This document shows, one piece after another, positions 1 to 61,506 of a stretch of DNA of 64,000 nucleotides. The number at the start of each line of letters is the position of its first letter. The first letter of the stretch is position 1. The stretch lies in NCBI GenBank assembly GCA_030167865.1, contig JALAGF010005680.1, forward strand, positions 1 to 64,000. Reading direction: 5' to 3'. Below the pieces are notes generated by a model. It saw only the letters and a list, made by a program, of their open reading frames with translations. It did not search any database and was not told the origin of the DNA. The translations under genes and the position numbers were made by a program. The stretch is from Craspedostauros australis (Eukaryota).

Positions 1-1209
1 GCATGCTCCAACGGCCATCTGGAGTGTGTGGAGTACCTCGTCGAATCCTGCGAGACAGATGTCGACTGCAAAGACCGCAAAGGCACCACTCCTCTTCATA
101 TGGCATGCTTCAACGGCCATCTGGAGTGTGTGGAGTACCTCGTCAAGTTATGCGGAGCCGACATGGACATCGAGAACGACAACCACAAAACACCCTTCGA
201 TGTGGTGGGTACATACGAAGAAATCAACCTGACGAGATTACTCATGAAGTGTGTCACCAGCCTCAATTTCCGAAACTCACAATTGCAGATGCAGCTGCGA
301 ATGCACAAACAAAGCCACACAAACATCATCACCACACCATCACAACACTACAACCCACAAACCCGCACAGCGACCAGCATCAGCATCGACCAAGATCGAC
401 GCAGCGCTGTTCTCACTGAAGCCAAGACAGACGTGACCTTCCTGTGTGAACAAGGTGACGAACAACAAGCAATCAAGGCAAACTCTGGAGTCCTCGTGGT
501 CACTGTCCCATCCATTCAGACATTGATCGACTCCGGAATCCAACATCAATGCACTGGTGATGGCGCTCACGATGGGACTGAACTCTTGCAAACGACCATC
601 CCTCTTCCCAACCTTCAATCAAAACACGTCCGACATGTCCTCCAATGCATCTACGCAGGTGAGATATCCTTCAACACCAACACCACTCATGACGACGCCG
701 ACGATGATGGCACGGACCAACCAGCCCCCACCCTCAATGGGCAGGACGATCTACAACAGCTGATCCTTGTGGCCAATGCGTTCGGCTTCTGGCGACTCAA
801 GCTTGTTCTTGAAGCGGAGTTGGTCCGCAAGCATCTCACGAAGCACACCATGATTGATGCATTGATATTCGCCGATCAACACAACTGTGACCTATTGAAA
901 GATGCGGCAATGAGGATGGCGGCTGAAAATGAGAAAGATATGTTCACTCATCCAGATTTCAGGAAGCTGATTCCACAGCCCCAACTACTGAGTGAGCTCC
1001 AGGCGTTTTGCAGTGGGAGACCAGATAGCGACGGTATTGATGACGCGTACAGTCGCATGTCAATGATGGAGCTGTACGAGGTGCTGAATGAAGAGACAAG
1101 TTTTCATTTGGATGCTTACATGGATCGCGCAACATGGGAGGACGGCGTGCGGTCCATCAAATCGTCCAGACTGGCTGAGACCAACAGCGATGTTGAGGAA
1201 GAGGAGTGA
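1..1209 (+). CDS. Ankyrin-repeat + BTB/POZ(-BACK-like) protein, copy 1 (5'-truncated by window edge)
   Basis: Frame is open from base 1 (ACSNGHLECVEYL...). Ankyrin consensus KGTTPLHMACFNGHLECVEYLV, then BTB-like TDVTFLC...VLQCIYAGEI...LILVANAFGFWRLKLVLEAEL and BACK-like LIFADQHNCDLLKDAAM. Stop TGA ends at 1209. Confidence 0.85.
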   Translation, partial: ACSNGHLECVEYLVESCETDVDCKDRKGTTPLHMACFNGHLECVEYLVKLCGADMDIENDNHKTPFDVVGTYEEINLTRLLMKCVTSLNFRNSQLQMQLRMHKQSHTNIITTPSQHYNPQTRTATSISIDQDRRSAVLTEAKTDVTFLCEQGDEQQAIKANSGVLVVTVPSIQTLIDSGIQHQCTGDGAHDGTELLQTTIPLPNLQSKHVRHVLQCIYAGEISFNTNTTHDDADDDGTDQPAPTLNGQDDLQQLILVANAFGFWRLKLVLEAELVRKHLTKHTMIDALIFADQHNCDLLKDAAMRMAAENEKDMFTHPDFRKLIPQPQLLSELQAFCSGRPDSDGIDDAYSRMSMMELYEVLNEETSFHLDAYMDRATWEDGVRSIKSSRLAETNSDVEEEE

Positions 1210-2584
1210 ATCGCCACCACGGCAGCTATTGAGAGAAGCGAACGCGTCATGAAGTCGAGGAGATACCTTGATTTGGAATCATTAAACGAATACTCCATGA
1301 AATAATCGCCATCTAATGGATCTAGCTCGGTTATGTGATGTGTCGATATGACAGCGAGTCGGGATACACGGGCCATCATAGGAAGAGCCTGAAAGTCCCT
1401 GTCCATCTATTGCTGTCGCTGTTGCTGCTGAGGATCTCATCAAAGAGAACCGTGTCCGTTCGACTGTCGATGACCACCATACCATGCTCGCCTCGTAATC
1501 TTCTGTGGCCGTCGCTGTCGCTGTCCAGTACCGTGAGCACGCACTGTCGATCACCCGCAACCGACACGATCTCTATCACTCTCTCGTACTGTTGAGGTTT
1601 GTTGTGTGAGGAAGGGTCGGTTGGTATGCAACAGTTATCCATGGACTTTCCGTTGTATCCCCATGTTGCTGTTGCTGCCATATGCGTTCGGTTGATATCC
1701 CCACTGGCTGTCCTGTTCCTGCATCTGCCTCCTTTTGCAGCATCCTCAATGCCCAACCTCGCTGATGGGGAGACATATCAAGTCGATTTCGTATCCTCGA
1801 TGCGATCATACCAGCCATCACCCACATTCCACTTGGGTGCTGACGAGCCATCGTTGGTGATGCTTGGATGTTCACCTGCACAACAGTGTTCGGACGATGC
1901 ATACTCCGATTTACGGCATATGGTCTCGTGGATCCATTGTCGCGCCTTGGAAACCCCAGCATACAGCCCCGGCGGAGCGGGAGGAGCAAATCCAAACACG
2001 GCTGATGTGATCCCTGCTTGCATGAACTGCTTCTGCCATGGGCGTTGAGAATTGAATGCGTTCGTGCCAGCGTCTGTACCCGTGCAGGTGCCTGTCCCAG
2101 TTTCGTCGCTCCGTAGAGAGACTATTGAACCTCCAGGATCTCGCTGACGCGTACCAGCGACATCCATGTTGTTCATGGCACAGAGAGTCACATCGATGAC
2201 CCGGTTGCTGTATTGATGGCGATGATGACAGCAACAGGAGTCAAGTCGGTGGCTCCAAGACTAATCAACAACACGAAGACGAGAGCACGACGGAGAAGTG
2301 TCTCCGACTCACACCAGCCGAACTAGAGCATCAGGTCATCGAATTCAGTACGGTAGAAAAGTTCATAATCGGGATGGTGGGCAAGGTGGAAGACGACAAG
2401 AGGGATTGTGTCTGAATGCGTAACTGCATGAGAGGCAAACGCAAGTGCAGACGCGAGGATAACCTGACACCATGAGACCAGTACACCCTTCACACGGTTG
2501 TGTGCTCTGCGATTCTCTGCGAGTGGTTCTAGTTGCAGTATTCTGGAAGTGTCCGAAACGACGTCATCGCTGCGTCGGACATGA

Positions 2585-3532
2585 TCAGTATCCAAAGATC
2601 TCCTCATCTTCATTGCCAACATCGTCGTACATCTCCATTTTCTGACGACGCCACGAACGCGACTGAATGGATCCAGTTTCTTCTGCTGCTCCCGCTGTCG
2701 TCATTGGCGACGATGACCCGGAGAAGGATGCCACAACAGAAGGCAATCCCAGCATCGATTGGGCTCTGCGGAACATATCGCTGATTCCCGATCTGCTTTG
2801 CCGCGATGGTGCAACATTGCGTATCAGCCCGTCCCCTGACGACGGCGAGGACGCCGTGGTTGACGATGAAATCGAGGACGATTGGTCGATCCACAGTATG
2901 GATCCGTGCGATAATCGTCCACCGCGCTTCAGCACGACGCCGGTAGCATCGTTGATGCCCGATCGATTGCGTCCCCAGAGCCGGCAATTCATTCGCAACG
3001 TGACCATTTGCAGCACCTCGTCTGGATCGTACCAAGCATCGCTCTTGCGCACCTCGAGTCTGGGGTAGGATTCCAGCACGAGGTTGTCGTAGAATCGGTC
3101 CGTGATGCAGTACGGGTTCGGTTGCACCCTCCATCGTCCGCGGATGGGCATGCACGTTGTTTTTTGTGAAATCTCCGCGTTTCTGTTGTTTGCGTTGCCA
3201 TACTTTGCAGTGTGCGAGGTCGGCGTCAGCAGGAAGGTCCCATCCGAATGAATGGACAGAGAGCAGGGAACCTTCTGCTTGGATCGGCTATTTGATGACG
3301 ACGACGACGACGATGTTGGTGTTGAAACCTTCGCTTGCTTGTGCGGCATGCTCGGGAAGATGCTCGATGAATCCCATCCGACGAATGGACGTGCAATGCC
3401 TCCACCGGATAGATGGAGGTCCCATTTGCCAACCGCGTAGGTCTCCGGATCGATGCCGGAAGCACGCGCCTGAGTGACCCAGCACAGGAGCGCGACGGTC
3501 ATGAATAGATGATGGCACAAGGCAAGCTTCAT
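2585..3532 (-). CDS. Hypothetical protein with predicted signal peptide
   Basis: Lies within a 397-aa ORF. Likely start MKLALCHHLFMTVALLCWVTQARA (ATG at 3532). Globular-looking segments (GKWDLHL, GRWRVQPNPYCITDRFYD) separated by Ser-rich linkers. The upstream start at 3778 is not excluded. Confidence 0.6.
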   Translation of the reverse strand: MKLALCHHLFMTVALLCWVTQARASGIDPETYAVGKWDLHLSGGGIARPFVGWDSSSIFPSMPHKQAKVSTPTSSSSSSSNSRSKQKVPCSLSIHSDGTFLLTPTSHTAKYGNANNRNAEISQKTTCMPIRGRWRVQPNPYCITDRFYDNLVLESYPRLEVRKSDAWYDPDEVLQMVTLRMNCRLWGRNRSGINDATGVVLKRGGRLSHGSILWIDQSSSISSSTTASSPSSGDGLIRNVAPSRQSRSGISDMFRRAQSMLGLPSVVASFSGSSSPMTTAGAAEETGSIQSRSWRRQKMEMYDDVGNEDEEIFGY

Positions 3533-30739: not shown

Positions 30740-32105
30740 ATGTGGCCGTCTGCGACTGTTGCCACCAAAGCGACGCGGGCCGCCTCACGGCTCGCCAGAT
30801 CATCTGCCAACCACGGCCACCTGCGGAACTGCTCTGCCACAAGGCACTTCGCCGCCAACGCCACCGATTCCTACTTCGACCGCAAGGCCCAACGCAAGCA
30901 GCAGCGCATGCAGGAGTACAACGACAAGCAGGCACGCAAGGAGCAGCGCAAGCACCGCCGCGATGGCAAGCCCCTCAACGTCAAGAAGAACAAATTCCTG
31001 GAATGGTGGCTCAAGCGGGTCGGATTCGAAGAAAAGATGGATCGCATGGCGCGCCGTGCCAAGCTGGATTGGAAGATCCAGGTCAGCGTCGTGCTGGAGC
31101 GCACGCCCCTCATCCTGCCCGATAAGGAAAAGTGGGAGCAGGATCTTCAAGATCTCGAGCTCCATCTGATGCAGTACGGCAAGCAGTATCCGCCGGAGTT
31201 ATTTGGTGATTCGACGTCCATGCTCGATGAAGACGACAGCGACAACAAGCTGTACACGGACGAAGAGCTGCTGTGTAAGTTGTTCTGATCGTGGGGAGCA
31301 TGTGTCGTCGGAACTGTGATTAGACTTCAAGTTGGCAATGTTGGCTGCAAATGCATGTCTACTGACCTGGCTATTTGCATGCGAACGAGTGATCGGTCCG
31401 CCCCAATCCACGAAAGTCAATGGCAGTTGGCATGATGCGGCAGAAGATACGGGACCACGCAACCAAGCATCATGCTTCCGTTTCATTCGCGTCGCTACTT
31501 TATGTTGTCTATTACCACCACGTGCCATAGTACTACCGTCACGCCACGCACTCATCCCATCAATATCTCCTTCTTTCGCACCTGCGCGCCTGCGCAATCC
31601 CTTGCAACCGTACACCACTGCGCCTGCAGCGATGCTTCCGGAAGGATTGGTGCCCGCACCACGCGTCACCGAGGCGGACAAATCCGGAGACGTCAAGACA
31701 CTGGATAGGAAGCTGCAGGACTTCGTTTTTCTGACGGTGCAAGAAGATAAGGAGGCAGATTGGACGTTCCCAACCGCAGAGCTGAACGAAGGCGAGAACT
31801 TCTACGAAGCATCCAAACGCATCATGGAGAGCACCGTTGGAACCGACATGGACATCTACTACGTTTCCAATGCGCCGCTGGCTGTGGAGGTGTCTCCATA
31901 TCCCGAGGAAGATCGCGAGAAGGAAGGATACTTTGGCGTCAAAACATTCTTCATGAAGGTGCAGCACGATGAAGGCGCTGTCGGTGATGATGTCATGCCG
32001 CAGCATGATTTTGCATGGCTTAACAGAGAGGAATACGTGGAGCGGATCGACCTATCCGCCAAGGGTGGTGACAACAGGAAGAACTTCTTCCATTACATGC
32101 TGTAA
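30740..32105 (+). CDS. MRPL46: Mitochondrial ribosomal protein mL46 (2 exons)
   Basis: Exons 30740-31274 and 31630-32105. Arg/Ala-rich mitochondrial presequence, VVLERTP, PRVTEADKSGDVKTLDRKL, WTFP, NAP, KTFFMK and DFAWLNREE. Confidence 0.88.
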
Positions 32106-33599: not shown

Positions 33600-35329
33600 T
33601 CACTCCTCTTCTTCAGCAACGTCGTTTGTATCAATCGCTTTGGATGATTTGGTACTCATAGAGCGGACGAAGTCCACCAATGTTTCCCGATCCATGTATG
33701 AATCCACTTTTGCTGTACCCTCATCCTCATCTATAACCTTGTACAGCTCCATCATGGACATACAGCTGTACTCATCATCAATACCATCACTTTCCATTCC
33801 ACCACTGCACAGGACATGAATGTCTCCCAATAGTTGATAGTGTGGAAACAGTTTCTTAAACTCTGGATGACCGAACATATCTTTCTCACTTTCAGCCGCC
33901 ATCCTCATTGCTGCATCCTTCAACACCAAGCAGTTGTGTTGATCGGCGAATATCAACACATCGATCATACTGTCCTCTGTGAGATGCTTGTGGGCTAACT
34001 CCGCTTCAAGAACAAGCTTGAGTCGCCAGAAGCCGAACTTGTTAGCCACAAGGATCAGCTGTTGCAGATCGTCCTGTCCAGTGAGGGTGGGAGTTGACTG
34101 GTGAGAGGCACCTGCATCGTGGTGAGCGCCGGCGTGAGCAGCAGCGTTGTCACGAGCGCTGTCATTGAAGGGTATTTTGCCTGTGTAGATGCCATGGAGG
34201 ACGTCTCGGACGTGTTTTGGTTGAAGGTTGGGAAGAGCGATGGTTACTTGCATGGGGGCCGCGCCGTCTTCGGTGCCATCATTCGCGCGATGATGTTGGA
34301 TTCCTTTGTCAATCAGTGTCTCAATGGATGGGACAGTGATCATGAGGACTTGGGCATTTACCTTGATTGGTTGCCGGTCGTCACCCTGTCCACACAAGAA
34401 GATAGTGTCTACCCTGTTCTCGGTTTAGAAGGATCTCTAAGCCGGTCTTCTCCAATGCTGACGTTGATCCTCTTGTGGCTGCTGTGTTTGTGTTCATTCT
34501 CTTGGCTCTTTCGCTTCAACTACTGTCTCAGCTGTTCTTGTGGTTGTTCATTTGCTTGTTCGTTTTGTTGTAAGTGGTGCTGCAGTTGTTGCAGTTGTGG
34601 GTGAGCTGAAGGCGAAAATCCTCTAATGAGGGACTCCATACACTCCAGGTGGCCGTCGGCGCATGCCACATGAAGGGGAGTGTAACCATCATTGTTTTGG
34701 CAGTTGATGTTTGCCCCACATGATTTGATGAGGTACTCGATACACTCCAGCTCGCCGTTGGAGCATGCCGTATGGAGGGGAGTGTCACCATAGTTGTTTT
34801 GGAAGTTGAAGTTCGCTCCACATGATTCGATGAGGTACTTCACACACTCCAGCTCGCCGTTGGAGCATGCCGTATGGAGGGGAGTGGCACCATAGTTGTT
34901 TTGGCAGTTGAAGTTCGCTCCACATGATTCGATGAGGTACTTCGCACACTCCAGGTGGCCGTTGATGCATGCCAGATAAAGGGGAGTGCGACCATAGTTG
35001 TCTTTGCAGTTGACGTCCGCCCCACCTGATTCGATGAGATACTTCACACACCCCAGGTTGCCACACAAGCATGCCACATGAAAGGGAGTGTCACCATCAT
35101 CGTCTTTGCAGTTGATGTTCGCCCCACATGATTTGATGAGGTACTTCACACACTCCAGCTGGTTGTAAATGCATGCCACATGAAGGGGAGTATGACCAAG
35201 CCAGTCTTTAACCTTGTTGACATCAACTCCTTCATTCTGCGTCTGGTTCTGCTTCCTCCACTCCTTCAACACTGACAAGTCACCTGCCTTGGCAGCATCA
35301 ATGAGTTGTTTGTTCGTAACACTCGGCAT
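33600..35329 (-). CDS. Ankyrin-repeat + BTB protein, copy 2 (interrupted linker: either spliced or pseudogenised)
   Basis: Ankyrin ORF 35329-34520 (N-cap plus six 34-aa repeats) and BTB/BACK ORF 34397-33600, clearly paralogous to copy 1. The linker holds TAG (34522-34520), a 2-nt frame offset and TAA (34427-34425). All are removed by a possible GT-AG intron 34523-34414. Confidence 0.75.
34630..35200 (-). repeat. 102-bp ankyrin-coding tandem repeat array (6 units)
   Basis: Recurring plus-strand unit ...CCACATGATTCGATGAGGTACTTCACACACTCCAG...GCATGCC...GGGGAGTG... with a 102-bp period. Confidence 0.9.
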
Positions 35330-38020
35330 TTTGAGAGTATGGTGGATGGTCGATGGTTGCTGGACGTTGGACGTTGGGCGTTGGACGATTTACGTTGGAT
35401 TGGCTGTCGAGGATGTCTGTGGTCGGAGCTGCCTATGGAAGAGATATCGATGTTTGTGTATGCAACAGCTTGTATTAGTATGAGTATGAGTACCATGCAC
35501 TGTGTGATGAATATGAGTGGCAATTCGATGTCTGTTGTTCGCGCGGTTGAGTATGGGGTTGAGTGGTGTGTGTGTTGTTGTCTTGTTCGCATGGTCTCCT
35601 CCTTCTGTTTGCCTGTGTTTGTCTCCTTCTCTTGATCAAACGCGTCTGGTTCGCGCGGATTGGATCTTTCTGTTCCCATCCATCACGAAAATGCGTGCGA
35701 CCAACAACAAGAAAGAAGCACCGCAACAGAGTTCTCGTTTGGCCACAATCAACGCAACACCAATCCGAAGCAAACAATGTGAAAGTCTTCGGAAACACAG
35801 AGAGCTGTCATCATCACCACCACCGCCACAACCACCACGTGCACCATGACCCACGATTGCTTGCGTCATCGTGGCATCTGCGTGACTGTGGACCCTCATC
35901 CGCCTGCCATCGCAAGCACCAACTTGAGGTGTGAACCAATGCCTCGAACAAAGATGAAGCCACCGATGTGACTGCCTCTGTTGATTGCGACCCACATCGT
36001 TTGGATTTGACTGGTTACCATCCCACCGCATTGCAAGCTCACCATCCGCACGGGCAACAAGAGTCCTCAACATCAAACCAACACCACATTGCATATTGGG
36101 ATGGCTTGGCACCTTCAACAATCAACAGGCGGAGTGATACCGTGGCGCCTCCACTGTTCCTGCCACACGGACCACCAACATGCAACACCATGCGCATTCT
36201 ATCAAGAGGCATGAGTGCCGCCGTCTTGGCTCATGACTTCCAGAGCATCGATGCTCAACCGAGGCGATCGACAGGAACCCCCGCCTCACGAACGAAGTTG
36301 GGAGCACCACAAGGAAGACATGTGGGTATACTGCGCGCATGGGCCATGGATCGCTGACCACGTACTTCTTGTGCTGTATGGAACTCTGTGTCAACCATGA
36401 TCCGCAATACAATACTCGCACTCTGCATGGGGTTGCTTGTTGGTTGGTTGGTTCGTTGGTTTCTTCTTTTGCTCGTCAAGCTCTCTGGTGCTTGGACTGC
36501 GCTAGCTCGTCGGTTCTTGTCTTTCCGCCATGCTGGTACTAGTCGCTTCGAAGATTGGAATGGATGGTGACCCTGGCATTTGTTGCTTCAACGGCGAGTG
36601 ATCACTCCTCCTCGGACTTGATAAGGGTCTCGACTGCAGTTCTGGCACAATGACAGGAGTGCAACTCATGGAGAGATGAGGACAATAGCGTGATGCGGGA
36701 CGGTCGATGGAACCGTGCAGCAACCATGCTCCTCGTGGCTACTCATCATTTCCCTCTGCCTTGCTCGCCATGTGCTCTTCGTAGATCGTCTCTTCCAGAA
36801 ACTTGGATCGGCTGGCATCGACACTGTTGCTTCCAATCTGCTTGGCAGTGTGTGACTTGGAGTGGAGAGTGCTCTGTGTGTGAATCCGGTGGCACGGCGA
36901 CGACCGCACTGCGACGACCGCACGGCTTGTGATAATGCTGCTGCCATGCGTCCTTTGTCTGCGCAACGAACCAACAACGATGCTGATGGCGGAGTGTGGA
37001 TGGAACCACGGGCGTCCTATCTGCTGGTGAATGACATCAGCAACATCCCTGTGTGTGTCGGAATGTGTGTACTCGGATGTGTATGCATCAGTCACACTTG
37101 CTTGCCGCCATCTAGACTATTCGGTGGCGGAATCACGACACAAAACTATGACGTCACAGCGATACCATCACTATACCACGAAGACACCGCGATACTACGA
37201 CGCCAGGATACCGCGATACCAGCGGATACCACAGTATCCATCACACGTGACGTCACATCGAGACCTTAACTACCAGGTCTACAGGAATGAAATATGTTGT
37301 GAATATTCCATCAGATTCGATCAATCATCAGATTCAACAAAACCTGAGAATGGAACAACGACGAGACAACGAGAGAGAAACGACGAAGTTGACGGTCAAG
37401 TCAACATCAACGAGCAACATGAGAGCAATGTGCATGGAGGTGCAAGAGGATTGCACCAAGCAATGAGAGCAAGGAAGGGATGGATCAAGAGAGCATCTTG
37501 ATCATCTCATACCCCACGCTCGCTCACCAACAATCAATAGCAACAACAGTAACAGTAACAGAAACACTTTGACAAAGAGTGTGACTACTACCGATTCTCC
37601 GTGCGCGGAGCCTTCCAACATGTGTGTGTGTGTCCACCGTAGAGAGCGGGCCTGACTTGTCGTACACAAGGCAGAGGCAGCATGGGAGCAGTCTCCAGCC
37701 CTTCAATCTCTTGAAACATCCAGTGCCTTTATCACAGCATTCTATTGCACAAGCAGATATTGTGCCTGCGGTACTGTTCCAAACATACGTAGAGAAGTAC
37801 AGTCTATTCGTAGGTGTATTACATGCAGGGACGTGGGTCTACCACACCTCTATGAGTATGATACGAATACGGAGCGGCCCCTCCATCTCATTCCATACCA
37901 TCGTGTCGTGATGCTCACAGGTAGGAGTTTTGGTGCCATTCATCAAGCGATCGCGGTACTGAGACGCGGTCTTGCTCCTGACCGCTTTCTTTGGTGTGAG
38001 TTGCAGTTGCTTTGTGTCAG

Positions 38021-40064
38021 CTATCTTCTCATGGTAGACAGCATCGCGTGTCGACGATCTGCTTCGTCCACGGCGATTTGATTGAAGGGCCCCGCGTGAT
38101 GACGAACGTTTGTTGCCATGTTGTTGTTTGCCATGCCGTCCATTATCATCTTGCTCATTGATGTGCCGTTCAACGCTGTAATTTCGATATCCTCTTGATC
38201 TGCTTCGTTGTCACGCCGATGATGATCATTCATCGGAGAACTTCCTTCGCTGATCTTCGGCACGTGGTGTCAATTGGCTACAGCCACGTTGATTTGGTCT
38301 TCGCCAACTTCCTCGGGCATGCGTTCGGGGAAGGTGAGCCCTTGCATTGGTGCAAACCAGTACCGGTGGAGTGCGCATTTGAGTTGGATTGGCGTGAACG
38401 TGAGGCTGCGTTCATGTCATCCGAACTGCCAGCTGTTCGTTGTCGCCGTGATGATGGCGATGAGTCCATCGATACTTGCGCAGTTCTTCTGTGGCCGCGA
38501 TCGGATGGGCTTCGACGACTCCGCGACGATGGCGAGCGGCGGCTTCTTCCAGAGGAGCAAGTGTGAATTGCTCCGTCACGACGATGGCGCAATGATGTCG
38601 AATGCTCCACACTCTTTGATCTTGACGATGTTGAATGCAGCTTGCCACTGGTGTGCTGTGCGCTTCTCCGCCGATGTCGTGGCGACGGTGATCTCGATGG
38701 TAATATCAATGATGATGACACGTCTCTTGTTTTGCTGGAGTGGTGACATCGGGGCCCATTGCCAAGCACCTTGGAGATCCTTGCCTTCATCTCATCGCGC
38801 AGAGCACCCGTGCTTCATCCGCGTGAACGTCGTTGCTTTGAGTCTTCGCTTGGACGCAACGAACTGTGTGCGGATCTGTTGCGAGAAGGATCCACCTGGT
38901 CCTTCTTGCTCGATTGGCATTCGATTCCCAAACTCAAGGTTCCAGGACTGGATGAGGCTTGGGGTGCGGCCGAGACACCCCTGTGTTCATGTTCGCGTTC
39001 GAACTGCTGAAGATTGAGTTTGGATTTGGACTGTGATGATGACGGTAGCGACGATGATGACGCCTTTGCGAATGCTTTGGTCAAGGCAAGATCGACCAAT
39101 TGCGATGATCGGGATTCGAGAGATGGCCGCTGCTTCGGTTTGGCAGAATTGGTCGACGACACTTCACGGAATGATGATCGTTTGGCCTTGAGGATACTTT
39201 CCAACGTTGACCTGCACTTGTTCAACGACAAAGACTGTTGTCTCTTTCATGTGTGCGGCTGAAGGGAAAGGGGGCTGATGTAGATGCTGAGCTCCGACCT
39301 TCAGGCGTGACATGGGTCGCGGAGCTTCTCCCACCGTTCATTGCAGCAGCACTTGTCGCAACGCCGACGCTGCCATCGTCGTCGTCTTGGAGACTTGGCA
39401 GATTGATCAGTGACTCCAGGCTCTTGCTGCATGACATCTTCGTTGTCGCAACTCGAGATAGAGTCGGGGTGCTGGCTGCATTCATCGAACCTGGTATGTC
39501 TGATGTGCCTGGTGTGTTGTGTCCGTCCTTCAAAAATTCCAGGGACTTCAAACTTTCGCTCCTCGATTTGTCGCTGCCGGTCATTCCGTTGGAATTCGTT
39601 CTTGGCCTTGGCCTGTGTCTCCGACTCTGGGCAAGCTTCGTCTTGTCTTGGTTGATCCGTTTGCGGGTTGCGCCGAGTGCTGTGGCTGTGGCGAAGCTGA
39701 GTCCACCTGGGGTGTTTGGCGTCTGTATCGATTCGTTGTTGTTGAACTTTCTGGGATCAAGGGAGCTGGATGACATCTCGTGATCTTGCATGTCGAGCAT
39801 CTCCAGACTCTTCACATGTGATCGTTTCACAGCCGAAGCTTTCGCATCTTTGGCTGCACTTCTATTGGCGCTGCTTGGTGTATCTGTGCTGACACTCGCA
39901 CAACCACCTGATTTTGCAGCTGCTTTGGCCTCATTGGCGACGCTGGTGGGCCTGCTCGCCTTCGATTTCGTGTCGGCCTGTTGCGGTTGCTTGGTCTCTG
40001 TTTGTTTCTCCGCTATCAGTCTGACACTGTCCTCTTCCACCAACTTCAATCGTCATGACCTCAT
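38021..40064 (-). pseudogene. Disrupted Ser/Arg/Lys-rich low-complexity protein gene
   Basis: ATG AGG TCA TGA CGA TTG at 40064 (early stop), then a chain of compositionally similar ORFs 40049-39222, 39231-38815, 38790-38278 and 38263-38021 separated by stops or frame changes. Confidence 0.55.
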
Positions 40065-40349
40065 GGCCTCTTGAAGGTTCGAACAGAGTATCAGGCTGGA
40101 CACTTTGCTGTGACAACTCCCAGAGTAGATCGTACTCATGGAAGGTTCCATAGTAATACTCATAGTCGTAGGACGGGTGGGTCAAGGTGCGGAGAAATTG
40201 GCGAGCCTTCCCGCAGTTCCTCTTGGATGTTGATGACTCATCATCTTGTCTGATTGTTGGTGTTGGTGTTGATGGTACCAATGTGAAGGGATGTGGCGCC
40301 GTTGGAGGGGTCGCCATCGCCATCGTCGAACAGAATTGTGTCGCATGAA

Positions 40350-41663
40350 GAGATGCTGGTTTGCGTCATCATCGTCGGTGTCGTCATGAGTGTTGTTGTT
40401 GAAGGATATCTTGCCTGTGTAGATGCATTGGAGGATGTATCGGATGTGTTTTGCTTGAAGGTTGAGAAGAGGGATGGTTGCTTGCATGGGGGCCTCACTG
40501 TCTTTGGTGCCATCATTCGCGTGCTGATGTCGGATTCCGGAGTTGATCAGTGTCTCAATGGATGGGACGGTGATCCTGAGGACTTGGGTGTTTGTCTTGA
40601 TTGGTTGTTGTTGGTCGCCCTGTCCACACAAGAATATGGTGTCTGTCCTGTTCTCGGTTTAGAAGGATCTGAGCTAGTCTTATCCAATGTTGATGTTGGT
40701 CCTCTTGTGGCTGCTGTGTTTGTGTTCATTCTCTTGCTTCTTCCGCTTCAACTGCTGTCTCAACTGTTCTTGTGGTTGTTCATTTGCTTGTTCGTTTTGT
40801 TGTAAGTGGTGCTGCAGTTGTTGCAGTTGTGGGTGAGCTGAAGGCGAAAATCCTCTAATGAGGGACTCCATACACTCCAGGTGGCCGTCGGCGCATGCCA
40901 CATGAAGGGGAGTGTAACCATCATTGTTTTGGCAGTTGATGTTTGCCCCACATGATTTGATGAGGTACTCGATACACTCCAGGTGGCCACGCATGCATGT
41001 GTAATGAAGGGAAGTGTCACCATCATTGTTTTAGCAGTTGAAGTTCGCTCCACATGATTCGATGAGGTACTTCATGCACTCCAGGTGGCCATCAATGCAT
41101 GCGTCATGGAGGGGAGTGTCACCATAGTTGTTTTGGCAGTTGAAGTTCGCTCCACATGATTCGATGAGATACTTCACACACTCCAGCTGGCCGTTGGAGC
41201 ATGCATGATGAAGGGGAGTGTCACCATTGTTGGCTTTGCAGTTGATGTCCGCCTCACATGATTCGAGGAGGGACTCCATACACTCCAGGTGGCCGTTGGA
41301 GCATGCATGATGAAGGGGAGTGGCACCATCGTTGTCTTTGCAGTTGATGTCCGCCCCACCTGATTCGATGAGATACTTCACACACCCCAGGTGGCCATAC
41401 AAGCATGCCACATGAAGGGGAGTGTCACTATCGTCGTCTTTGCAGTTGATGTTCGCCCCACATGATTTGATGAGGTACTTCACACACTCCAGGTGGCCGT
41501 TGGAGCATGCGGCATGAAGGGGAGTATGACCAAACCATCTTGTAACCTTGTTGACATCAACTCTTTCATTCTGCATCTTATTCTGCTTCTTCCATTCCTT
41601 CAACACCGACAAGTTGCCTCTGTTGGCAGCATCAAGGAGTTGTTCGTTCGTAACATTCGGCAT
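40350..41663 (-). pseudogene. Ankyrin-repeat + BTB protein, copy 3 (nonsense codon in the repeat array, BTB truncated)
   Basis: N-cap plus seven repeats, with an in-frame TAA at 41033-41031 where sister repeats have CAA or AAA. The linker has TAA/TAG/TAA. BTB homology to copies 1 and 2 stops at about 40350 (after DDTDDDDANQ). Confidence 0.8.
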
Positions 41664-42437: not shown

Positions 42438-43922
42438 TCAGTCAAAGCTTATCGTATTTAGCTCCTGTACTGACGACAGCATCACCAATCCGTTCGTCAT
42501 GCTCTCCAACTCGACCTGGTCATCGTACATCCCCAGCGTCGTGTTCTTCAGATGCGCGATTATTGTCGCAAGCGGCAGCGCTTGTTGTCGCTGCACGCTG
42601 TCCCCATTCTCATCCCCGTCGGCAATTGTTCCAAATGCTTTGCCCAAGCGCTGGAACATGATCTGCGATGTGACTTTGAGGCATTCCAACTGCGCATCTT
42701 CTACGATGGGACTGTCGACGATATCCCAAGTTTCATCCTGCATCAATTGCGCATCGCTCTTCTTGCGGGGTGTACATGGATCGTTCACGTCCGCGCGATC
42801 AGTTGCAGTCGCATCATTGGAAAAGCTGCCATTCATTCCATTGGTAATCTCTGCCTCGTCGTCATCCGGCGAGATAAAGAATCGCACGGGGCTTCTGGGA
42901 CGCTTTCCGCGGGACCTCTTGACGTACGTTCCGTAGAGCACTTCATCGATGATGGCCTGCAAGGTCTGCCGCAGGTCGTCCTCGGTCACATTCATCGTCG
43001 ATGGATCCAGCACGTTCCATTCGCCCATGTGGCGCGATACGCTACGCCGAACCGTGACGATCAGCTTGGCGATGCCGGTGTCGAAGAAGACATCGTACGT
43101 CCGAGCCAACATCAAGCGATGCGCCGAGGTGTTGCTATTTCCGATTTCATCGTCTGCGTTGCTGCTGTTGATGCCCATGTCGTTGTTGCCAGTGTGCTCG
43201 TTATCCCGCACTTGCTGCGCCATGTTTCGGGTGTAGAGATGCATCTGCGTCGTGAGCACGAGAAAGAGGCTCATATGCGCAAACATGGTAGCGATCAACC
43301 GCGTGGCTGTTTCCACCTTGATCGTGTCCCACAGATCCTTCTCCAGGTTCTCCAGTTCGCTCTTGCTCTCGTCCGCACCTTCCTCTTTGAGCTTCATCTT
43401 CTTCGCACGGAGCCGCTTCAACGCCTTCGTGGTCTTGGACGTGTTGGTGGATTGCTCGATGGTCATCATCGCTGTCGGGAACAGGTTGAGCGAAGCGTTG
43501 ATGACCTCCTCTTTGCACTTGATGAATTGCGCGCGCTTCAACTTCCACGCGTCCTTGTTGCTCCGCCTGCCATTGTACAATTGCGACGGATCGGCTGCTG
43601 CGACGGCAGTGATGGCGGTGGTGCTGGTTTCTGTCAGCCATCGCACGGAGGATGTCACGGCACCTGCCGTTTGGGAAACCCAATCTTTCAATGGCTTATT
43701 TCGGTCGTTCGCTGTGGCGGTGACGGCAACAGGATCAGCACGCTGGCCTACCTCGTCCGCTTCCGCTTCGCCCCCATCCTGCTCTTCCTCTCCGTCCTCA
43801 AAGACCGCGCTCGCAACACGGTATGCGCCGTACAAGGCAGCAGCCGTCACCAGCGTCCCTCCCACGAACGCCAACCCAAAGGGTCTCTGAGGGATTCGGC
43901 GTCTTGGACGACCAACGTTCAT
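42438..43922 (-). CDS. PEX3: Peroxin-3
   Basis: N-terminal basic stretch plus TM (RPRRR...FVGGTLVTAAALYGAYR) and KDLWDTIKVETATRLIATMFAHMSLFLVLTTQMHLYTR, matching the PEX3 K.LW..LK....TR......Q..L.R motif. C-terminal LPLATII. Confidence 0.85.
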   Translation of the reverse strand: MNVGRPRRRIPQRPFGLAFVGGTLVTAAALYGAYRVASAVFEDGEEEQDGGEAEADEVGQRADPVAVTATANDRNKPLKDWVSQTAGAVTSSVRWLTETSTTAITAVAAADPSQLYNGRRSNKDAWKLKRAQFIKCKEEVINASLNLFPTAMMTIEQSTNTSKTTKALKRLRAKKMKLKEEGADESKSELENLEKDLWDTIKVETATRLIATMFAHMSLFLVLTTQMHLYTRNMAQQVRDNEHTGNNDMGINSSNADDEIGNSNTSAHRLMLARTYDVFFDTGIAKLIVTVRRSVSRHMGEWNVLDPSTMNVTEDDLRQTLQAIIDEVLYGTYVKRSRGKRPRSPVRFFISPDDDEAEITNGMNGSFSNDATATDRADVNDPCTPRKKSDAQLMQDETWDIVDSPIVEDAQLECLKVTSQIMFQRLGKAFGTIADGDENGDSVQRQQALPLATIIAHLKNTTLGMYDDQVELESMTNGLVMLSSVQELNTISFD

Positions 43923-44443
43923 CGTTGCCTGCGTTCGTTACGTTCAATCCCTCTCGAATGTTGACGGACGAGATCATGAGTTGTGCACCACAACGATCCA
44001 CCGAAGCAATCACAACGGTGTCAAGGAAAGAGATCCCCTTCTTCACCACATGAAGGCGAAGCCAAACACCTCCAAACAGGCATTCTGTTGCGCTTGTCGT
44101 TGTTTGTGATGATTCGTTGTTCGGATTTATTGTTTTGGCGCGTTTGTGGGAGTTATGGCAAATTTATGTAAACATCATATATTGACGTTTGCGACTAGAT
44201 CGACCATGTCAGCTCATCACTTGCCACGCGGAAGGCACCCATCCATCTTCGTGTTTCCCAACCAGTCCCCTCACATTTTCCGTCCAACATCGTGGTTGTG
44301 CCAAACGTCGCGACTTGGTTGACAACACAATCCGCAACCCAAGCAGACCGAACACAATAAAACCCAATCCGACATCGACGTGCCAAGCTTTGAAGGCAAC
44401 GCTGGGACAGCGTATCGTGGAGCTCCTCGACTCAGACCGAACC

Positions 44444-47633: not shown

Positions 47634-48905
47634 TCATGGCCTTGGTTGCACGAGGTCATCCTTGGTGATGGCATGGTCGATCATGAACGCGGCGATCTGA
47701 TCGTGGAAAAACTGTGCCCAGTCCATGAGGCTGTCTTGGCCGAGGAAGTAGACGAGGAACCAAAGCCAACGTTCGAGGCCACCCACACGGTACTCCTTCC
47801 AGCACTCATCCCAGCTGAGGCTGCCAACGCCGTTCTCCTGCAATACGGTGAAGTAGGCCTTCACCAGGCTTTCCTCGCAGTCCTTGCGTTCCTTCGGATC
47901 CATGTTGGAGAGGACGTACTGGCCCAGATCTTGCGGCCCGGATCCAAGTCCGCACATTTCGAAATCCAGCATTTTGAGGTTGCCGGCTGTATCTTTCCTG
48001 ATATCCCACAAGATGTTTCCCGGCCAGAAGTCACCATGTACCAGCGTCCAGTGGGTGGATTCGTTGAGTCTTGCCACCTGTGCGTCCCACGAGATCCCGG
48101 CGACGCCCTTTTCCACCGCTTCGCGTACGACTGGATTCCATTTGATCGTCTTGGCGTCATCATTGTTCTCCTGGCTGGTATACTTGGCCCAGCACCCCTT
48201 GACGATGTTCTGCGATGCCTCCCAGCTCTCCTTGCCTTCCTTTTGCAGCCACTGGCATCCGCGGAGCCAATCGTTCTCGAGCAGGGAGTTTTGTTGCCAG
48301 AAGGCTGCGTGCACCTTGGCGATGGCCTTGAACGTCGACTCTGCGACTTGCTCGCTGGTGGGAGGCGTGTCGCCAGCGCGGGCCACCATGGCGGGGAGGT
48401 CGCGCTGCCAGTTGTTGGGATTTCCAGGCCCGAAGAAGACGCCGGAATCCAGATATCCCTCGGAGAGATCCTCCATAATGATGACCTTCTCGCCAGTCGC
48501 CATGTCACCCCACGAGTAGTAAATGTGCGGGATGAACCCGACGCTTGGAGCTTCCTTCTCCAGCTTGGGTGCGAGCTGGGAGAAGAAGTGCGCCTCGCGT
48601 GCCAAGCCCAGGTACGAGCTGAGCTGCAGCCCGGCTCCGGTCGCCTGCTTAATGACGACGCAGGTCTGCTCGGTCGTCCCGTCGGCCTTGGTTGCGCCAT
48701 CGATCGTAACGAGCAGGGTCGCCCCGTCCTTGACCTCCGCCCCCTTTCGAGTGGCGTTGCTGATGTCCTTGACGACGCACTTCTTGCATGTCAGGGAGGT
48801 CTTGGATTCCATCCACTGGGGATCGATCTCGTTGTTCGAGAGCCACACCGGAGTGTTCGATGCGGATGCGGCTGCAGATGCCGGAGATGCGTTATCGGTT
48901 GCCAT
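47634..48905 (-). CDS. Aminoglycoside phosphotransferase / ecdysteroid-kinase-like protein
   Basis: VVIKQ, REAHFF, IIMEDL, IAKVHA, Brenner motif TLVHGDFWPGN and LDFE. Start taken at MATDN (48905). Confidence 0.85.
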   Translation of the reverse strand: MATDNASPASAAASASNTPVWLSNNEIDPQWMESKTSLTCKKCVVKDISNATRKGAEVKDGATLLVTIDGATKADGTTEQTCVVIKQATGAGLQLSSYLGLAREAHFFSQLAPKLEKEAPSVGFIPHIYYSWGDMATGEKVIIMEDLSEGYLDSGVFFGPGNPNNWQRDLPAMVARAGDTPPTSEQVAESTFKAIAKVHAAFWQQNSLLENDWLRGCQWLQKEGKESWEASQNIVKGCWAKYTSQENNDDAKTIKWNPVVREAVEKGVAGISWDAQVARLNESTHWTLVHGDFWPGNILWDIRKDTAGNLKMLDFEMCGLGSGPQDLGQYVLSNMDPKERKDCEESLVKAYFTVLQENGVGSLSWDECWKEYRVGGLERWLWFLVYFLGQDSLMDWAQFFHDQIAAFMIDHAITKDDLVQPRP

Positions 48906-49574
48906 TTTACTTGGTTGATGTGCGGATATTGCTGGTTCTTTGATTTGTGAGCGCTGCTTGTTCATTTGTTGAAGTTGAGATATGTGGGCTCCCCATGTTG
49001 CATTCCAATTCAAGCCGAACAAACAAGCAAGCAACCACGCAGCAACTTCCGATAGCCACACACGATGTTGTTGTTGGTGATGTGTCGCAGCACACAACAA
49101 CTAAAAGAGAAGAGAGAGCGAGGGACTTCCACAGCGATCGTCAGCGGAGCGAACAGATTCTCGTGTTGATTGACGAAAGCGAATCCTGGTGCACGACTGT
49201 GTGCACGACTGGGATAGACGACTTGGTGATTGTTCCAGGAACAATTTGTACGTTGTTCTTGCGGAGACGCAAGGTTCTTGTGGCATCACAGGTGGCCGAG
49301 CAGCAGCGTAGCATCCTCGAAGAGCATGTGTCATATTCTACTCGCATAGTACCATACACCTGCAAGTGTTGGATGCAATAGTCTGGGATAGGATGCGAAA
49401 CCCTACTCTGCTCGACTCAACTGTATTTAGACTCCACGCAGCTACGGAAACGCCAAGTACGAATATTGAAATTGGACAACCGTAAGCAGTGGGTTGTCAA
49501 GTTGTGTATTCGTAGAGTATGTTACGAATGCTGGAGGACTACGGTCCACTTGACTTGCTGCAAACGGAACCCCA

Positions 49575-59770: not shown

Positions 59771-60486
59771 CTTGACGGTGTTAACAAGGGTATCGGAGGG
59801 TTGGGGTGGTGTTTGTTGTTGTTGTGTTTGAGATGATGGATTTGGGGGTTTCGAGTGATGACTGATGTTCCTGCGTTGCTGCTGGCGGCAGCGACAGCGA
59901 CAGCACCACCAACGAAAGGAAGAGGGAAAGTTGTTTCGCAGTCGTCCCCGCGTTGTTGTTGCTGACGGAAACGTTCGGATTTAGCTCTCTCTCTGCCTCT
60001 GCCTGTTCGAGTTTTCGCTGTTGGCTGCGAACGAGTTGGCAACGTCGCAACACACGCGCAAACGGTGATCACCAATGCTGTTGCCGTCTGCGTCACGACG
60101 CCAAATTCATGTTTCTTCAGTGGTGGTTTTCGTGATAGCCATGATGTCATCAGAGGCGACGTATACATGGACAGACGTAAGATTCATTCGACTTCTCCTT
60201 CATTCAATCATTCGTGATTCGGGTTGGCGCCAAAATTGAATCTCGGTTGTCAACAGGAATTTGCACAAAACCACAAACACAAGCACAAACACGGCCTCAG
60301 CATGTGGACCACCTCCAACAAAGCAACACCAAGCGCGACCTACTCTATGGTACGAGTGCGTGCAACAGGTACCATAGTCGTACTATTACATCAATCATCA
60401 AGGCACCAACCAATCTATCGTCGCGTTGCTATTTATTTCATCATCCTCACGACCTTGCATCGCTCAATCCATTCAGTGCTGCCAGG

Positions 60487-61506
60487 ATGGTAACAACGAT
60501 GGCGAACATTGCTGGAGCCCTTTCCGTTGCTTTGTTGGTGACGACGATGATTCCATTCACACTCGACAACAATTCGCAGGCGCATGCATTCATCGTCACA
60601 TCTCGGAACACAGAGCATGGCGTGCATCCATTGCGCATGATGGATGATGATCGGAACAGCGACGACAGGGATGACAGCAACGACGATGCAATATCGCGAC
60701 GATCCCTCTTCCTCAAGGCTCCCGTTGCTGTCGGCGGCGCCGTGATCTACGGCAAGCTGGTCTCGGATTCCATCCAGAAACTCACACGCGGAGATCTCGT
60801 CTTCCCGGACGATCACGAGCGACGCGTGGCATCCACCATTGCCACGGCGTTTGCCAATTGCATTCCTGCGGCCAGCGATGGCCGTCCGCTGCGTGTTCTG
60901 GAAGTGGGCATCGGCAAAGACCTGCGCGTGCTGCGGCGCAATCTGTACAACGATGGATTTCGAAAATTGGAAAATGCGGGCGTCACGTCCGTGCAGTTGG
61001 TGGGTGCCGATCTATCGCCACCGTCGGATGCGATCCTCGCGGATGCCAAGCAGCGCGTTGGGAAGCAGCTACAGCAATCCAACAGCGGCGTGCAGGTGGA
61101 TATTCAGGTCCTGCAAACCTCCATCGAGTCCATGCCCACGTTCGCGGATGGGTCCTTCGACTGCATCGTGTGCTGTCTGACATTGTGCAGCGTTTCCAAT
61201 CCACAAGCGGCTGTCATGGAGATGAAGCGGCTGCTGCGGCCGCAGGGTGGAACTTTGGCATTCGTGGAGCATGTAGCCGTGAATCAGGACGAATCCTACC
61301 CCATCTTGCGGGCCCAGCAACAAGTATTCGATCCGTTGCAGCAGATCGTGGCGGACAATTGCCATTTGCGTCGTGAGACGGATCGTACCGTTGCTGAGGT
61401 CTTTGGTAACGCGACGAGGTGGCTCGCGCAGGAACGCTTTGTGGTCGACGGCATGTGGCCGGTGTCGTGTCAAACATGCGGTGTCCTTCAAACCATACTA
61501 ATATGA
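60487..61506 (+). CDS. Plastid-targeted methyltransferase type 11 (METTL7-like)
   Basis: Signal peptide ending AHA|F, then VLEVGIG, GADLS, DGSFDCIVCCLTLCSV, RLLRPQGG, FVEHV and NCHLRR. Confidence 0.8.
   Translation: MVTTMANIAGALSVALLVTTMIPFTLDNNSQAHAFIVTSRNTEHGVHPLRMMDDDRNSDDRDDSNDDAISRRSLFLKAPVAVGGAVIYGKLVSDSIQKLTRGDLVFPDDHERRVASTIATAFANCIPAASDGRPLRVLEVGIGKDLRVLRRNLYNDGFRKLENAGVTSVQLVGADLSPPSDAILADAKQRVGKQLQQSNSGVQVDIQVLQTSIESMPTFADGSFDCIVCCLTLCSVSNPQAAVMEMKRLLRPQGGTLAFVEHVAVNQDESYPILRAQQQVFDPLQQIVADNCHLRRETDRTVAEVFGNATRWLAQERFVVDGMWPVSCQTCGVLQTILI

Follow-up and report, generated by a model that had tools for sequence, protein, structure and literature searches.

A diversifying family of ankyrin-repeat genes, with and without a BTB-BACK domain, in the diatom Craspedostauros australis

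The window analysed here, a stretch of 64,000 nucleotides from contig JALAGF010005680.1 (C5680 in the host assembly G000; 65.9 Mb, 6,734 contigs) of the diatom Craspedostauros australis, carries three copies of a gene in which tandem 102-bp units encode 34-aa ankyrin repeats upstream of a BTB-BACK module or what is left of one. These copies belong to a large family whose repeats are nearly invariant except at a few codons, and this variability is the product of diversifying selection and of recombination below the level of the repeat, not of decay. The unit under selection is the ankyrin binder. The best explanation overall, held with moderate confidence, is a repertoire of intracellular ankyrin-repeat binders that is specific to its lineage and is actively diversifying. 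On the sequence pattern, it is very probable that the members are functional diversifying binders, and analogy with known systems slightly favours defence against non-self as the driver.

The 585 internal units comprise 569 distinct sequences. Positions 5, 10 and 13 reach an amino-acid entropy of 3.45, 3.71 and 3.76 bits, positions 1, 2, 3, 14 and 16 lie at 2.0-3.0 bits, and T6, P7, L8, H9, A11 and C12 fall below 0.5 bits (framework median, 0.4-0.6). Phe, Trp, Tyr and His make up 30-38% of residues at the variable positions; position 10 takes 19 residues, and position 33 is only moderately variable. The first-pass annotation of the window had located the variation at the target-contact positions of designed ankyrin repeat proteins (DARPins), and this holds, the variation being strongest at positions 5, 10 and 13, followed by 2, 3 and 14. 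An artificial ankyrin library was randomised at positions 2, 3, 5, 10, 13 and 14, which were chosen because they face the binding surface (PMC3308923).

In four-fold codon families at codons 5, 10 and 13, third-base heterozygosity is 0.09, 0.21 and 0.24, against 0.65-0.72 at the first and second bases. Base frequencies predict 35.7 stops at codons 5, 10, 13 and 14 in 252 units of full-length genes and 55.1 in 299 units of genes that encode ankyrin repeats only; none is observed in either class. Where two units have the same 78-nt framework (166 pairs), the variable codons have a proportion of nonsynonymous differences (pN) of 0.54 versus a synonymous one (pS) of 0.23. Substitutions thus pile up at the contact codons with third bases conserved, instead of being spread evenly as in neutral decay. 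The sparing of third bases together with the absence of stops argues for selection and against a mutation hot spot, which would randomise third codon positions and create stops. A diversity-generating retroelement was also rejected, since the most variable bases have T, C, G and A alike as their majority base and third positions are spared; no recurring reverse transcriptase-like open reading frame (ORF) was noted by eye among the clustered flanking ORFs.

Between repeats and between genes, loop and helix segments are combined almost freely. Units show 17.5 differences per 102 nt within a gene versus 21.6 between genes, and the nearest neighbour of 405 of the 585 units lies in another gene. 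Linkage (r2) drops from 0.037 to about 0.01 beyond 10 nt. A 15-nt loop segment is common to 511 unit pairs, 38 of which also have the helix segment, starting 12 nt further on, in common. There are 32 loop haplotypes that lie at least 4 bases from the majority and recur in at least two genes; they often stand with differing helix segments, and they span the full-length and the ankyrin-only class. Since the block between loop and helix is only 12 nt, below the usual assembly words, such re-pairing is presumably not an assembly join. Two contigs with identical BTB and 3 kb of downstream DNA carry arrays of 17 and 16 units with like ends and different interiors, and may represent alleles or recent duplicates. 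The longest array read is that of locus L031 (G000:C3870:17723-27656), a full-length member with 60 unbroken 102-bp units in a 2,444-aa ORF, in which identical loop segments are clearly re-paired with differing helix segments.

The family is far from being confined to a few copies, a condition under which the first-pass annotation would have given up its proposal: the BTB-BACK of copy 2 has at least 145 matches in the host assembly, a count that rests on 141 of 391 candidates scored. Listed matches number 139 (the window's own and secondary fragments excluded), 6 of which were dropped for too little upstream DNA; 121 of the remaining 133 were retrieved in 120 regions. When anchored at the start of the BTB, these yielded 120 entries, among them the three window copies; near-identical entries were kept. 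Of the 120, 49 are full-length ORFs, no start being visible in 8, and 64 are ankyrin-only genes, 2 of them uncertain because their junction contains N. The BTB is truncated in 2 entries, 3 are broken either upstream of the array or within it (copy 3, L125, and L053, an N gap), and 2 are unclassified. A BTB 20-mer found in 78 of 110 sampled genes has 114 exact matches in the assembly, and a unit motif found in 513 of 818 sampled units has 937, the backward control giving 0 in both cases. Scaled accordingly, the totals are estimated at about 160 BTB-bearing copies, 1,500 units and 215 arrays.

Family genes are intronless, with 2-60 repeats in full-length and 2-16 in ankyrin-only members, and the full-length ORF runs from cap through repeats and coiled coil to BTB-BACK. 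Ten more arrays beyond the BTB-anchored sample all have open frames; 9 run into a family BTB (8 of them uncoupled) and 1 leaves its contig, and no alternative C-terminal domain was found in these ten. No telomere repeats occur within the retrieved family loci. Full-length relatives (69-94% coverage) number 6 among the best 120 of 312 matches, 4 of them labelled Craspedostauros australis in UniRef, and one protein with this label is encoded in the host assembly at 100% identity; such relatives were seen only in Craspedostauros-labelled proteins or in transcript-sized records without a name. Among ORFs with a start, a transmembrane-like stretch occurs in one, at the C-terminus. The full-length members L037, L052, L055 and L060 extend beyond the usual stop into a hydrophobic tail, and the older relatives P0002 and P0004 also have a hydrophobic C-terminal segment, hinting at membrane-anchored variants. 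A different gene (L119:3897-5822, +), more diverged and containing about 12 ankyrin repeats, adjoins a family member and has similar ORFs in one other locus. A neighbour gene with Cys/Gly-rich DUF7640 repeats (L125:3222-4166, -) likewise has a similar ORF at one other locus.

In the window itself, 102-bp tandem arrays were found at 34626-35198 and 40858-41532, and their minus-strand translation gives the 34-aa ankyrin units (Table 1). The six units of copy 2 and the seven of copy 3 agree with the first-pass annotation, whose six quoted motif pairs are all present, as does the third paralogue at the window start. The ankyrin-BTB architecture that it assumed for the family applies to copy 1, the sole in-frame ANK-BTB-BACK gene in the window, and not to copies 2 and 3, which are not fusions. 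The 5' part of copy 1 falls beyond the window start; one full unit lies at 73-174, BTB-BACK begins at 415, and the Pfam BTB score is barely above the cut-off. Its BTB and about 3 kb 3' of it (window 1-3070) recur with 99.8-100% identity in L116, L117 and L118, and two of the four contigs having this region begin at an identical array base. Two of the three other contigs hold the complete arrays of 17 and 16 units described above. This sharing may reflect alleles, very recent duplication or assembly redundancy.

The copy 2 ORF is closed by TAG (34522-34520) within the linker, and its BTB-BACK lies in a different frame with TAA (34427-34425) just before it. The ORF has no transmembrane-like stretch and, judged by eye, an N-terminus unlike a signal peptide, and copy 2 is probably a functional free binder. 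In copy 3, the final codon of unit 5 is a TAA stop (41033-41031) and three further stops lie at the ankyrin-BTB junction; the BTB is cut at about 40355, and the rest of the domain is lost with some 2.1 kb that the tandem unit in contig C6721 has and copy 3 has had deleted. Copy 3 can be read as a shortened binder or a recent pseudogene. The tract that it has in common with copy 2 may result from recent gene conversion or from assembly collapse. Other genes in the window encode peroxin-3 (Pex3; 42441-43937, -), an EcKL/APH kinase-like protein (47637-49100, -) and a methyltransferase (60181-61503, +).

Table 1. Coordinates of the ankyrin family features in the window
Feature	Position	Strand	Basis
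Copy 1, 3' part of intact ANK - C-cap - linker - BTB-BACK gene	1..1209	+	translation, Pfam
Copy 2 detached BTB-BACK frame, 274 stop-free codons	33600..34424	-	
Copy 2 ankyrin-only ORF, 269 aa: N-cap, six repeats, Gln-rich tail, linker stop	34520..35329	-	translation
Tract of 219 bp, copy 2 identical to copy 3 (~40764-40982); flanks 80-91%	34532..34750	.	
Copy 2 array, six 102-bp (34-aa) units, variable at 2, 3, 5, 10, 13, 14	34595..35206	-	
Co-duplicated spacer of ~7.7-kb unit, 84-91% identity to spacers of many copies, ragged ends	35330..40353	-	
Insertion of 562 bp; other spacer copies align across the site without it	37059..37620	.	
Copy 3 BTB remnant, 5' third only, beyond three stops	40355..40658	-	
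Copy 3 array, seven 102-bp units; units 6 and 7 beyond stop	40827..41540	-	
Copy 3 ORF, 210 aa: N-cap and five repeats	41031..41663	-	translation

Copies 2 and 3 resemble the larger part of the family in their loss of the fusion. In a BTB tree, most ankyrin-only genes group in a single clade, within which a few intact genes are also placed. The BTB remnants of the ankyrin-only genes have 37 distinct stops or frameshifts, 71 in all, spread over 42 of 58 genes, one frameshift being common to 19 genes; the BTB of full-length genes, a class open by definition over most of this span, has disablements in 2 of 49. The ankyrin regions of 65 genes (51 kb) contain just 2 real disablements. Nonsynonymous and synonymous singletons (N/S) in the BTB number 136/26 in ankyrin-only genes (6 stops) versus 97/39 in full-length genes (1 stop; Fisher p = 0.007). 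In the ankyrin core they number 168/112 and 217/174, respectively, where a neutral ratio would be 2.1-2.6, and the core is constrained in both classes. Neither an intron nor a programmed frameshift accounts for the ankyrin-BTB junction, which has no shared GT..AG and where the ORFs end at many offsets. That a binder is kept under selection after loss of its effector domain is unexpected, and its persistence points to binding alone as a function.

The BTB-BACK of the family is modelled with confidence (predicted local distance difference test score, pLDDT, 90.2) as a BTB fold followed by 3-box/BACK helices, and the best Foldseek matches of the model are SPOP (E 6.5e-8), then KEAP1, gigaxonin and KBTBD2/4. 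Sequence relatives at E 1e-10 or better number 19 among 1.84 billion representatives. The 33 top relatives scanned include 17 with MATH and 4 with ankyrin repeats, and MATH-BTB proteins are the closest non-ankyrin kin. The simplest origin would be a swap in which an ankyrin array replaced MATH on a SPOP/BPM-type BTB-BACK module. An endogenous giant-virus origin is not supported, the neighbours being ordinary eukaryotic genes and the nearest BTB kin MATH-BTB proteins in scans made outside the viral collections. The host also has a second expansion of about 30 MATH-BTB-BACK-like genes, many in tandem (G000:C4448, with eight of them, C4761, C6310, C6405, C4276 and others), whose frames are open throughout the matched parts.

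It had been proposed that the family consists of Cullin-3 substrate receptors. What stands of this is the SPOP-like fold and a host Cullin-3 (G000:C2183; top PDB match Cullin-3, E 5e-114). A binding domain in frame with BTB-BACK is found in copy 1 and 49 of the 120 entries, and not in copies 2 and 3 or in 64 of the 120. In the SPOP register, the phi-x-E motif keeps its hydrophobic phi as Ile, and its glutamate is absent from all 46 full-length copies that could be matched (3 of the 49 could not), replaced mostly by His. The corresponding E85A change in KLHL3 severely impaired Cul3 binding (PMC3616122). Some older relatives keep Asp or Glu at this site, and the canonical motif is also absent from most diatom MATH-BTB relatives, so that the loss lowers the odds of Cul3 binding but leaves it plausible. 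A complex predicted for the copy 1 BTB-BACK and the N-terminal domain of a related diatom's Cullin-3 (stand-in P0267), with alignments not used, scored 0.02, a value that gives no verdict and is counted on neither side. Cul3 coupling of the full-length copies seems somewhat doubtful.

A stronger form of the proposal holds that the family as a whole consists of Cullin-3 receptors that ubiquitinate foreign proteins, the ankyrin-only copies being young pseudogenes or donors whose arrays are kept open by conversion. The 3-box helices and the phi residue retained in register, the host Cullin-3, the rarity of BTB disablements in full copies and the loop haplotypes common to both classes all fit this, and diatom adaptors, most of whose MATH-BTB members are without the canonical motif, may bind otherwise. 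It is nonetheless unlikely: the glutamate is lost, the ankyrin-only genes outnumber the intact ones and went on duplicating after shared disablements such as the frameshift of 19 genes, and a complete lack of the 55 stops expected in their 299 units is hard to achieve via conversion alone.

A unit of about 7.7 kb, which is tandem in contig C6721, carries the gene and occurs with deletions in C6716, C4457, C5682 and the window, copies 3 and 2 being adjacent units. Homology between copies fades at many differing points on both sides, and segmental duplication fits these scattered ends better than a transposon does. By eye, no recurring transposase-like ORF stood out among 374 clustered flanking ORFs, terminal motifs not having been searched systematically. 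The 562-bp insertion in the spacer has a short inverted pair (37090-37098/37578-37586) and internal repeats of 24-30 nt, and is possibly a small non-autonomous element. The spacer also contains a decaying low-complexity ORF fragment without a Pfam match (39225-40052, -), and parts of it (35956-38900) are well covered by run X1. The value for C before G is 0.42 in the family versus 0.62 in six control genes, with 0.70-0.74 in other contexts. This CpG depletion affects ankyrin and BTB coding DNA in old and young clades, unlike the neighbouring genes, and suggests methylation of a protein-coding multigene family.

Such depletion is also expected of methylated repeats, and the family might be a selfish or passively amplified repeat of no function, variable through mutation hot spots, methylation and assembly error. 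Many copies are broken, and the 7.7-kb units are amplified together with their flanks. The reading as a repeat of no function is very improbable, as third positions are not randomised and stops are not created, the unit ends are ragged with no transposase-like ORF recurring, and the shuffling appears to act across a 12-nt block. Silence of the family, which had been named as grounds for doubt, is also not what the data suggest: run X1 is RNA-like and is guessed to be RNA, none of the runs being on record as such, because it shows one spliced joint (GT..AG, 31274-31630) within a neighbouring gene. It shows no differences from single-copy genes and covers family sequences with many contigs. Four other bins have no cover, and uncovered window bins say nothing on the silence of any family copy. 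Run X2 gave 2 short matches only. At best, these data indicate transcription at the level of the family.

On the reading preferred here, segmental duplication, both tandem and dispersed, would have multiplied an intronless gene about 160-215 times. The pattern of diversification shows unequal crossing-over that shifts the repeat number (2-60), short conversion or crossover in the near-invariant DNA flanking the variable codons that re-pairs loop and helix within and between genes, and selection that purges stops and favours amino-acid change on the concave face, at positions 5, 10 and 13 and to a lesser extent at 2, 3 and 14. Full-length products would dimerise via BTB-BACK, with Cullin-3 recruitment uncertain either way, and over half of the copies, copies 2 and 3 among them, have shed BTB and would persist as free binders. 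The most likely driver would be an arms race with a variable intracellular antagonist (a virus, a parasite, a bacterial effector or a selfish element). The birth-and-death family of variable recognition modules envisaged by the first-pass annotation is supported by the number of matches, by the substitutions at contact codons and by the RNA-like run that covers the family.

Several points weigh against this reading. Loop and helix are not wholly unlinked, the 38 pairs having both segments in common comparing with 0.6 in permutations, and the selection tests are confined to third-base heterozygosity, stop expectation and pairwise pN/pS. In a fragmented assembly, alleles may have been counted as paralogues and long arrays may have been mis-joined. 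Pairwise BTB dN/dS is 0.44-0.57 in ankyrin-only genes, barely above the 0.34-0.41 of full-length genes, and the full-length BTB singleton N/S of 2.5 is near the neutral 2.6-3.5, which implies weak constraint on BTB even where it is in frame. The C-terminal capping repeat is absent from 49 of 64 ankyrin-only proteins, which may lower their stability. The summed depth of X1 cannot be assigned to copy 2 or 3, and X1 is a single run whose RNA nature is guessed. The missing phi-x-E glutamate described above counts on the same side.

Other functions can be imagined for such binders. An antibody-like system, in which about 1,500 interchangeable units in about 200 genes would be pooled and recombined below the repeat fast enough to yield new binders within clonal mitotic lineages, is improbable; full-length members would oligomerise via BTB-BACK and clear viral or parasite proteins, and ankyrin-only members would act as neutralising intrabodies or pass targets via the shared coiled coil. 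Less probable still, the binders might function in recognising self or mates, or in internal genetic conflict (signalling in sexual stages, a drive or toxin-antidote system). A BTB/POZ family of the diatom Seminavis robusta is reproduction-responsive, with signs of positive selection in some genes (PMC7335047), and some fungal NOD-like receptors (NLRs) with conserved repeats control allorecognition (PMC12222747). Against this, the present family is transcribed in the sole run at hand, which has no record of a sexual stage, and its more than 100 dispersed loci seem to suit a broad repertoire more than a one-locus system.

The intracellular recognition of viruses, parasites and bacterial effectors by diatoms is largely an open matter. 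No diatom receptor of this kind and no description of the present family were found in the literature searched, which leaves most subscription papers outside its coverage; the main texts of two diatom genome annotation papers, whose supplements could list such genes, are without mention of ankyrin (PMC7335047, PMC12159174). The family is put forward as a concrete candidate recognition repertoire with the strongest kind of arms-race signature. What is new is how large the family is, that intronless genes are shuffled below the repeat, that the host is unicellular and that binders persist without an effector.

Genes of the ABTB1, At2g04740, YIL001W and NPR1 type, which also pair ankyrin with BTB, are conserved and low-copy. 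This pairing is seen in Atlas clusters from animals, plants and fungi. In the protist pathogen Plasmodiophora, 17 ankyrin proteins have SKP1/BTB/POZ domains (PMC12503489); these are secreted effectors, unlike the diatom family. Nematode MATH-BTB and F-box adaptors undergo birth and death with positive selection in the substrate-binding and not in the cullin-binding part, and have been proposed to remove foreign proteins (summarised in PMC4334554). The diatom BTB-BACK is likewise closest to MATH-BTB proteins; however, its recognition module is a recombining array of free length and not a single domain, more than half of the copies are without the adaptor domain, and the phi-x-E glutamate is missing.

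The family evolves like the fungal NLRs with conserved ANK, TPR or WD40 repeats, yet it is no NLR member, and no Pfam match to NACHT or NB-ARC was found in the window copies. In these receptors, near-identical repeats vary in number, positive selection acts on the concave side of the ankyrin repeats (inner helix, hairpin loop), and exchange within and between genes is proposed; ten Podospora genes passed an 85% criterion, the HNWD family excluded (PMC4986451). In contrast, the diatom family has no NACHT/NB-ARC or cell-death effector, its partner being a C-terminal BTB-BACK or none, and it has many more near-identical members in the genome of a unicellular host. Repeat-induced point mutation is not known in it, CpG depletion being seen instead. 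The ROCO-LRR and NB-ARC-TPR receptors of Ectocarpus, another stramenopile alga, show birth and death, shuffled repeats and diversifying selection, with an immune role proposed and unproven (PMC3341825). In Ectocarpus, every repeat forms an exon of its own and is shuffled as a whole, whereas the diatom genes are intronless, exchange between loop and helix below the repeat, and have another repeat type and other partner domains. The strategy of a conserved repeat with a variable face, as in fungal NLRs and the receptors of brown algae, thus extends to a unicellular alga that uses it without the NLR scaffold.

The binding surface also has an engineered parallel. In first-generation DARPins, position 10 is fixed. 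It is partly randomised in an artificial library (PMC3308923) and fully variable in the diatom family. DARPins and artificial ankyrin libraries otherwise have the fixed framework, the N-cap, the variable positions 2, 3, 5, 10, 13 and 14 and the richness in aromatic residues at these positions in common with the diatom repeats (PMC3308923, PMC8229355), whereas the diatom units are natural, 34 aa long and carry framework cysteines. Nature has thus reached the positions picked for engineered ankyrin libraries, and the 569 distinct natural units provide a ready dataset for the design of ankyrin binders.

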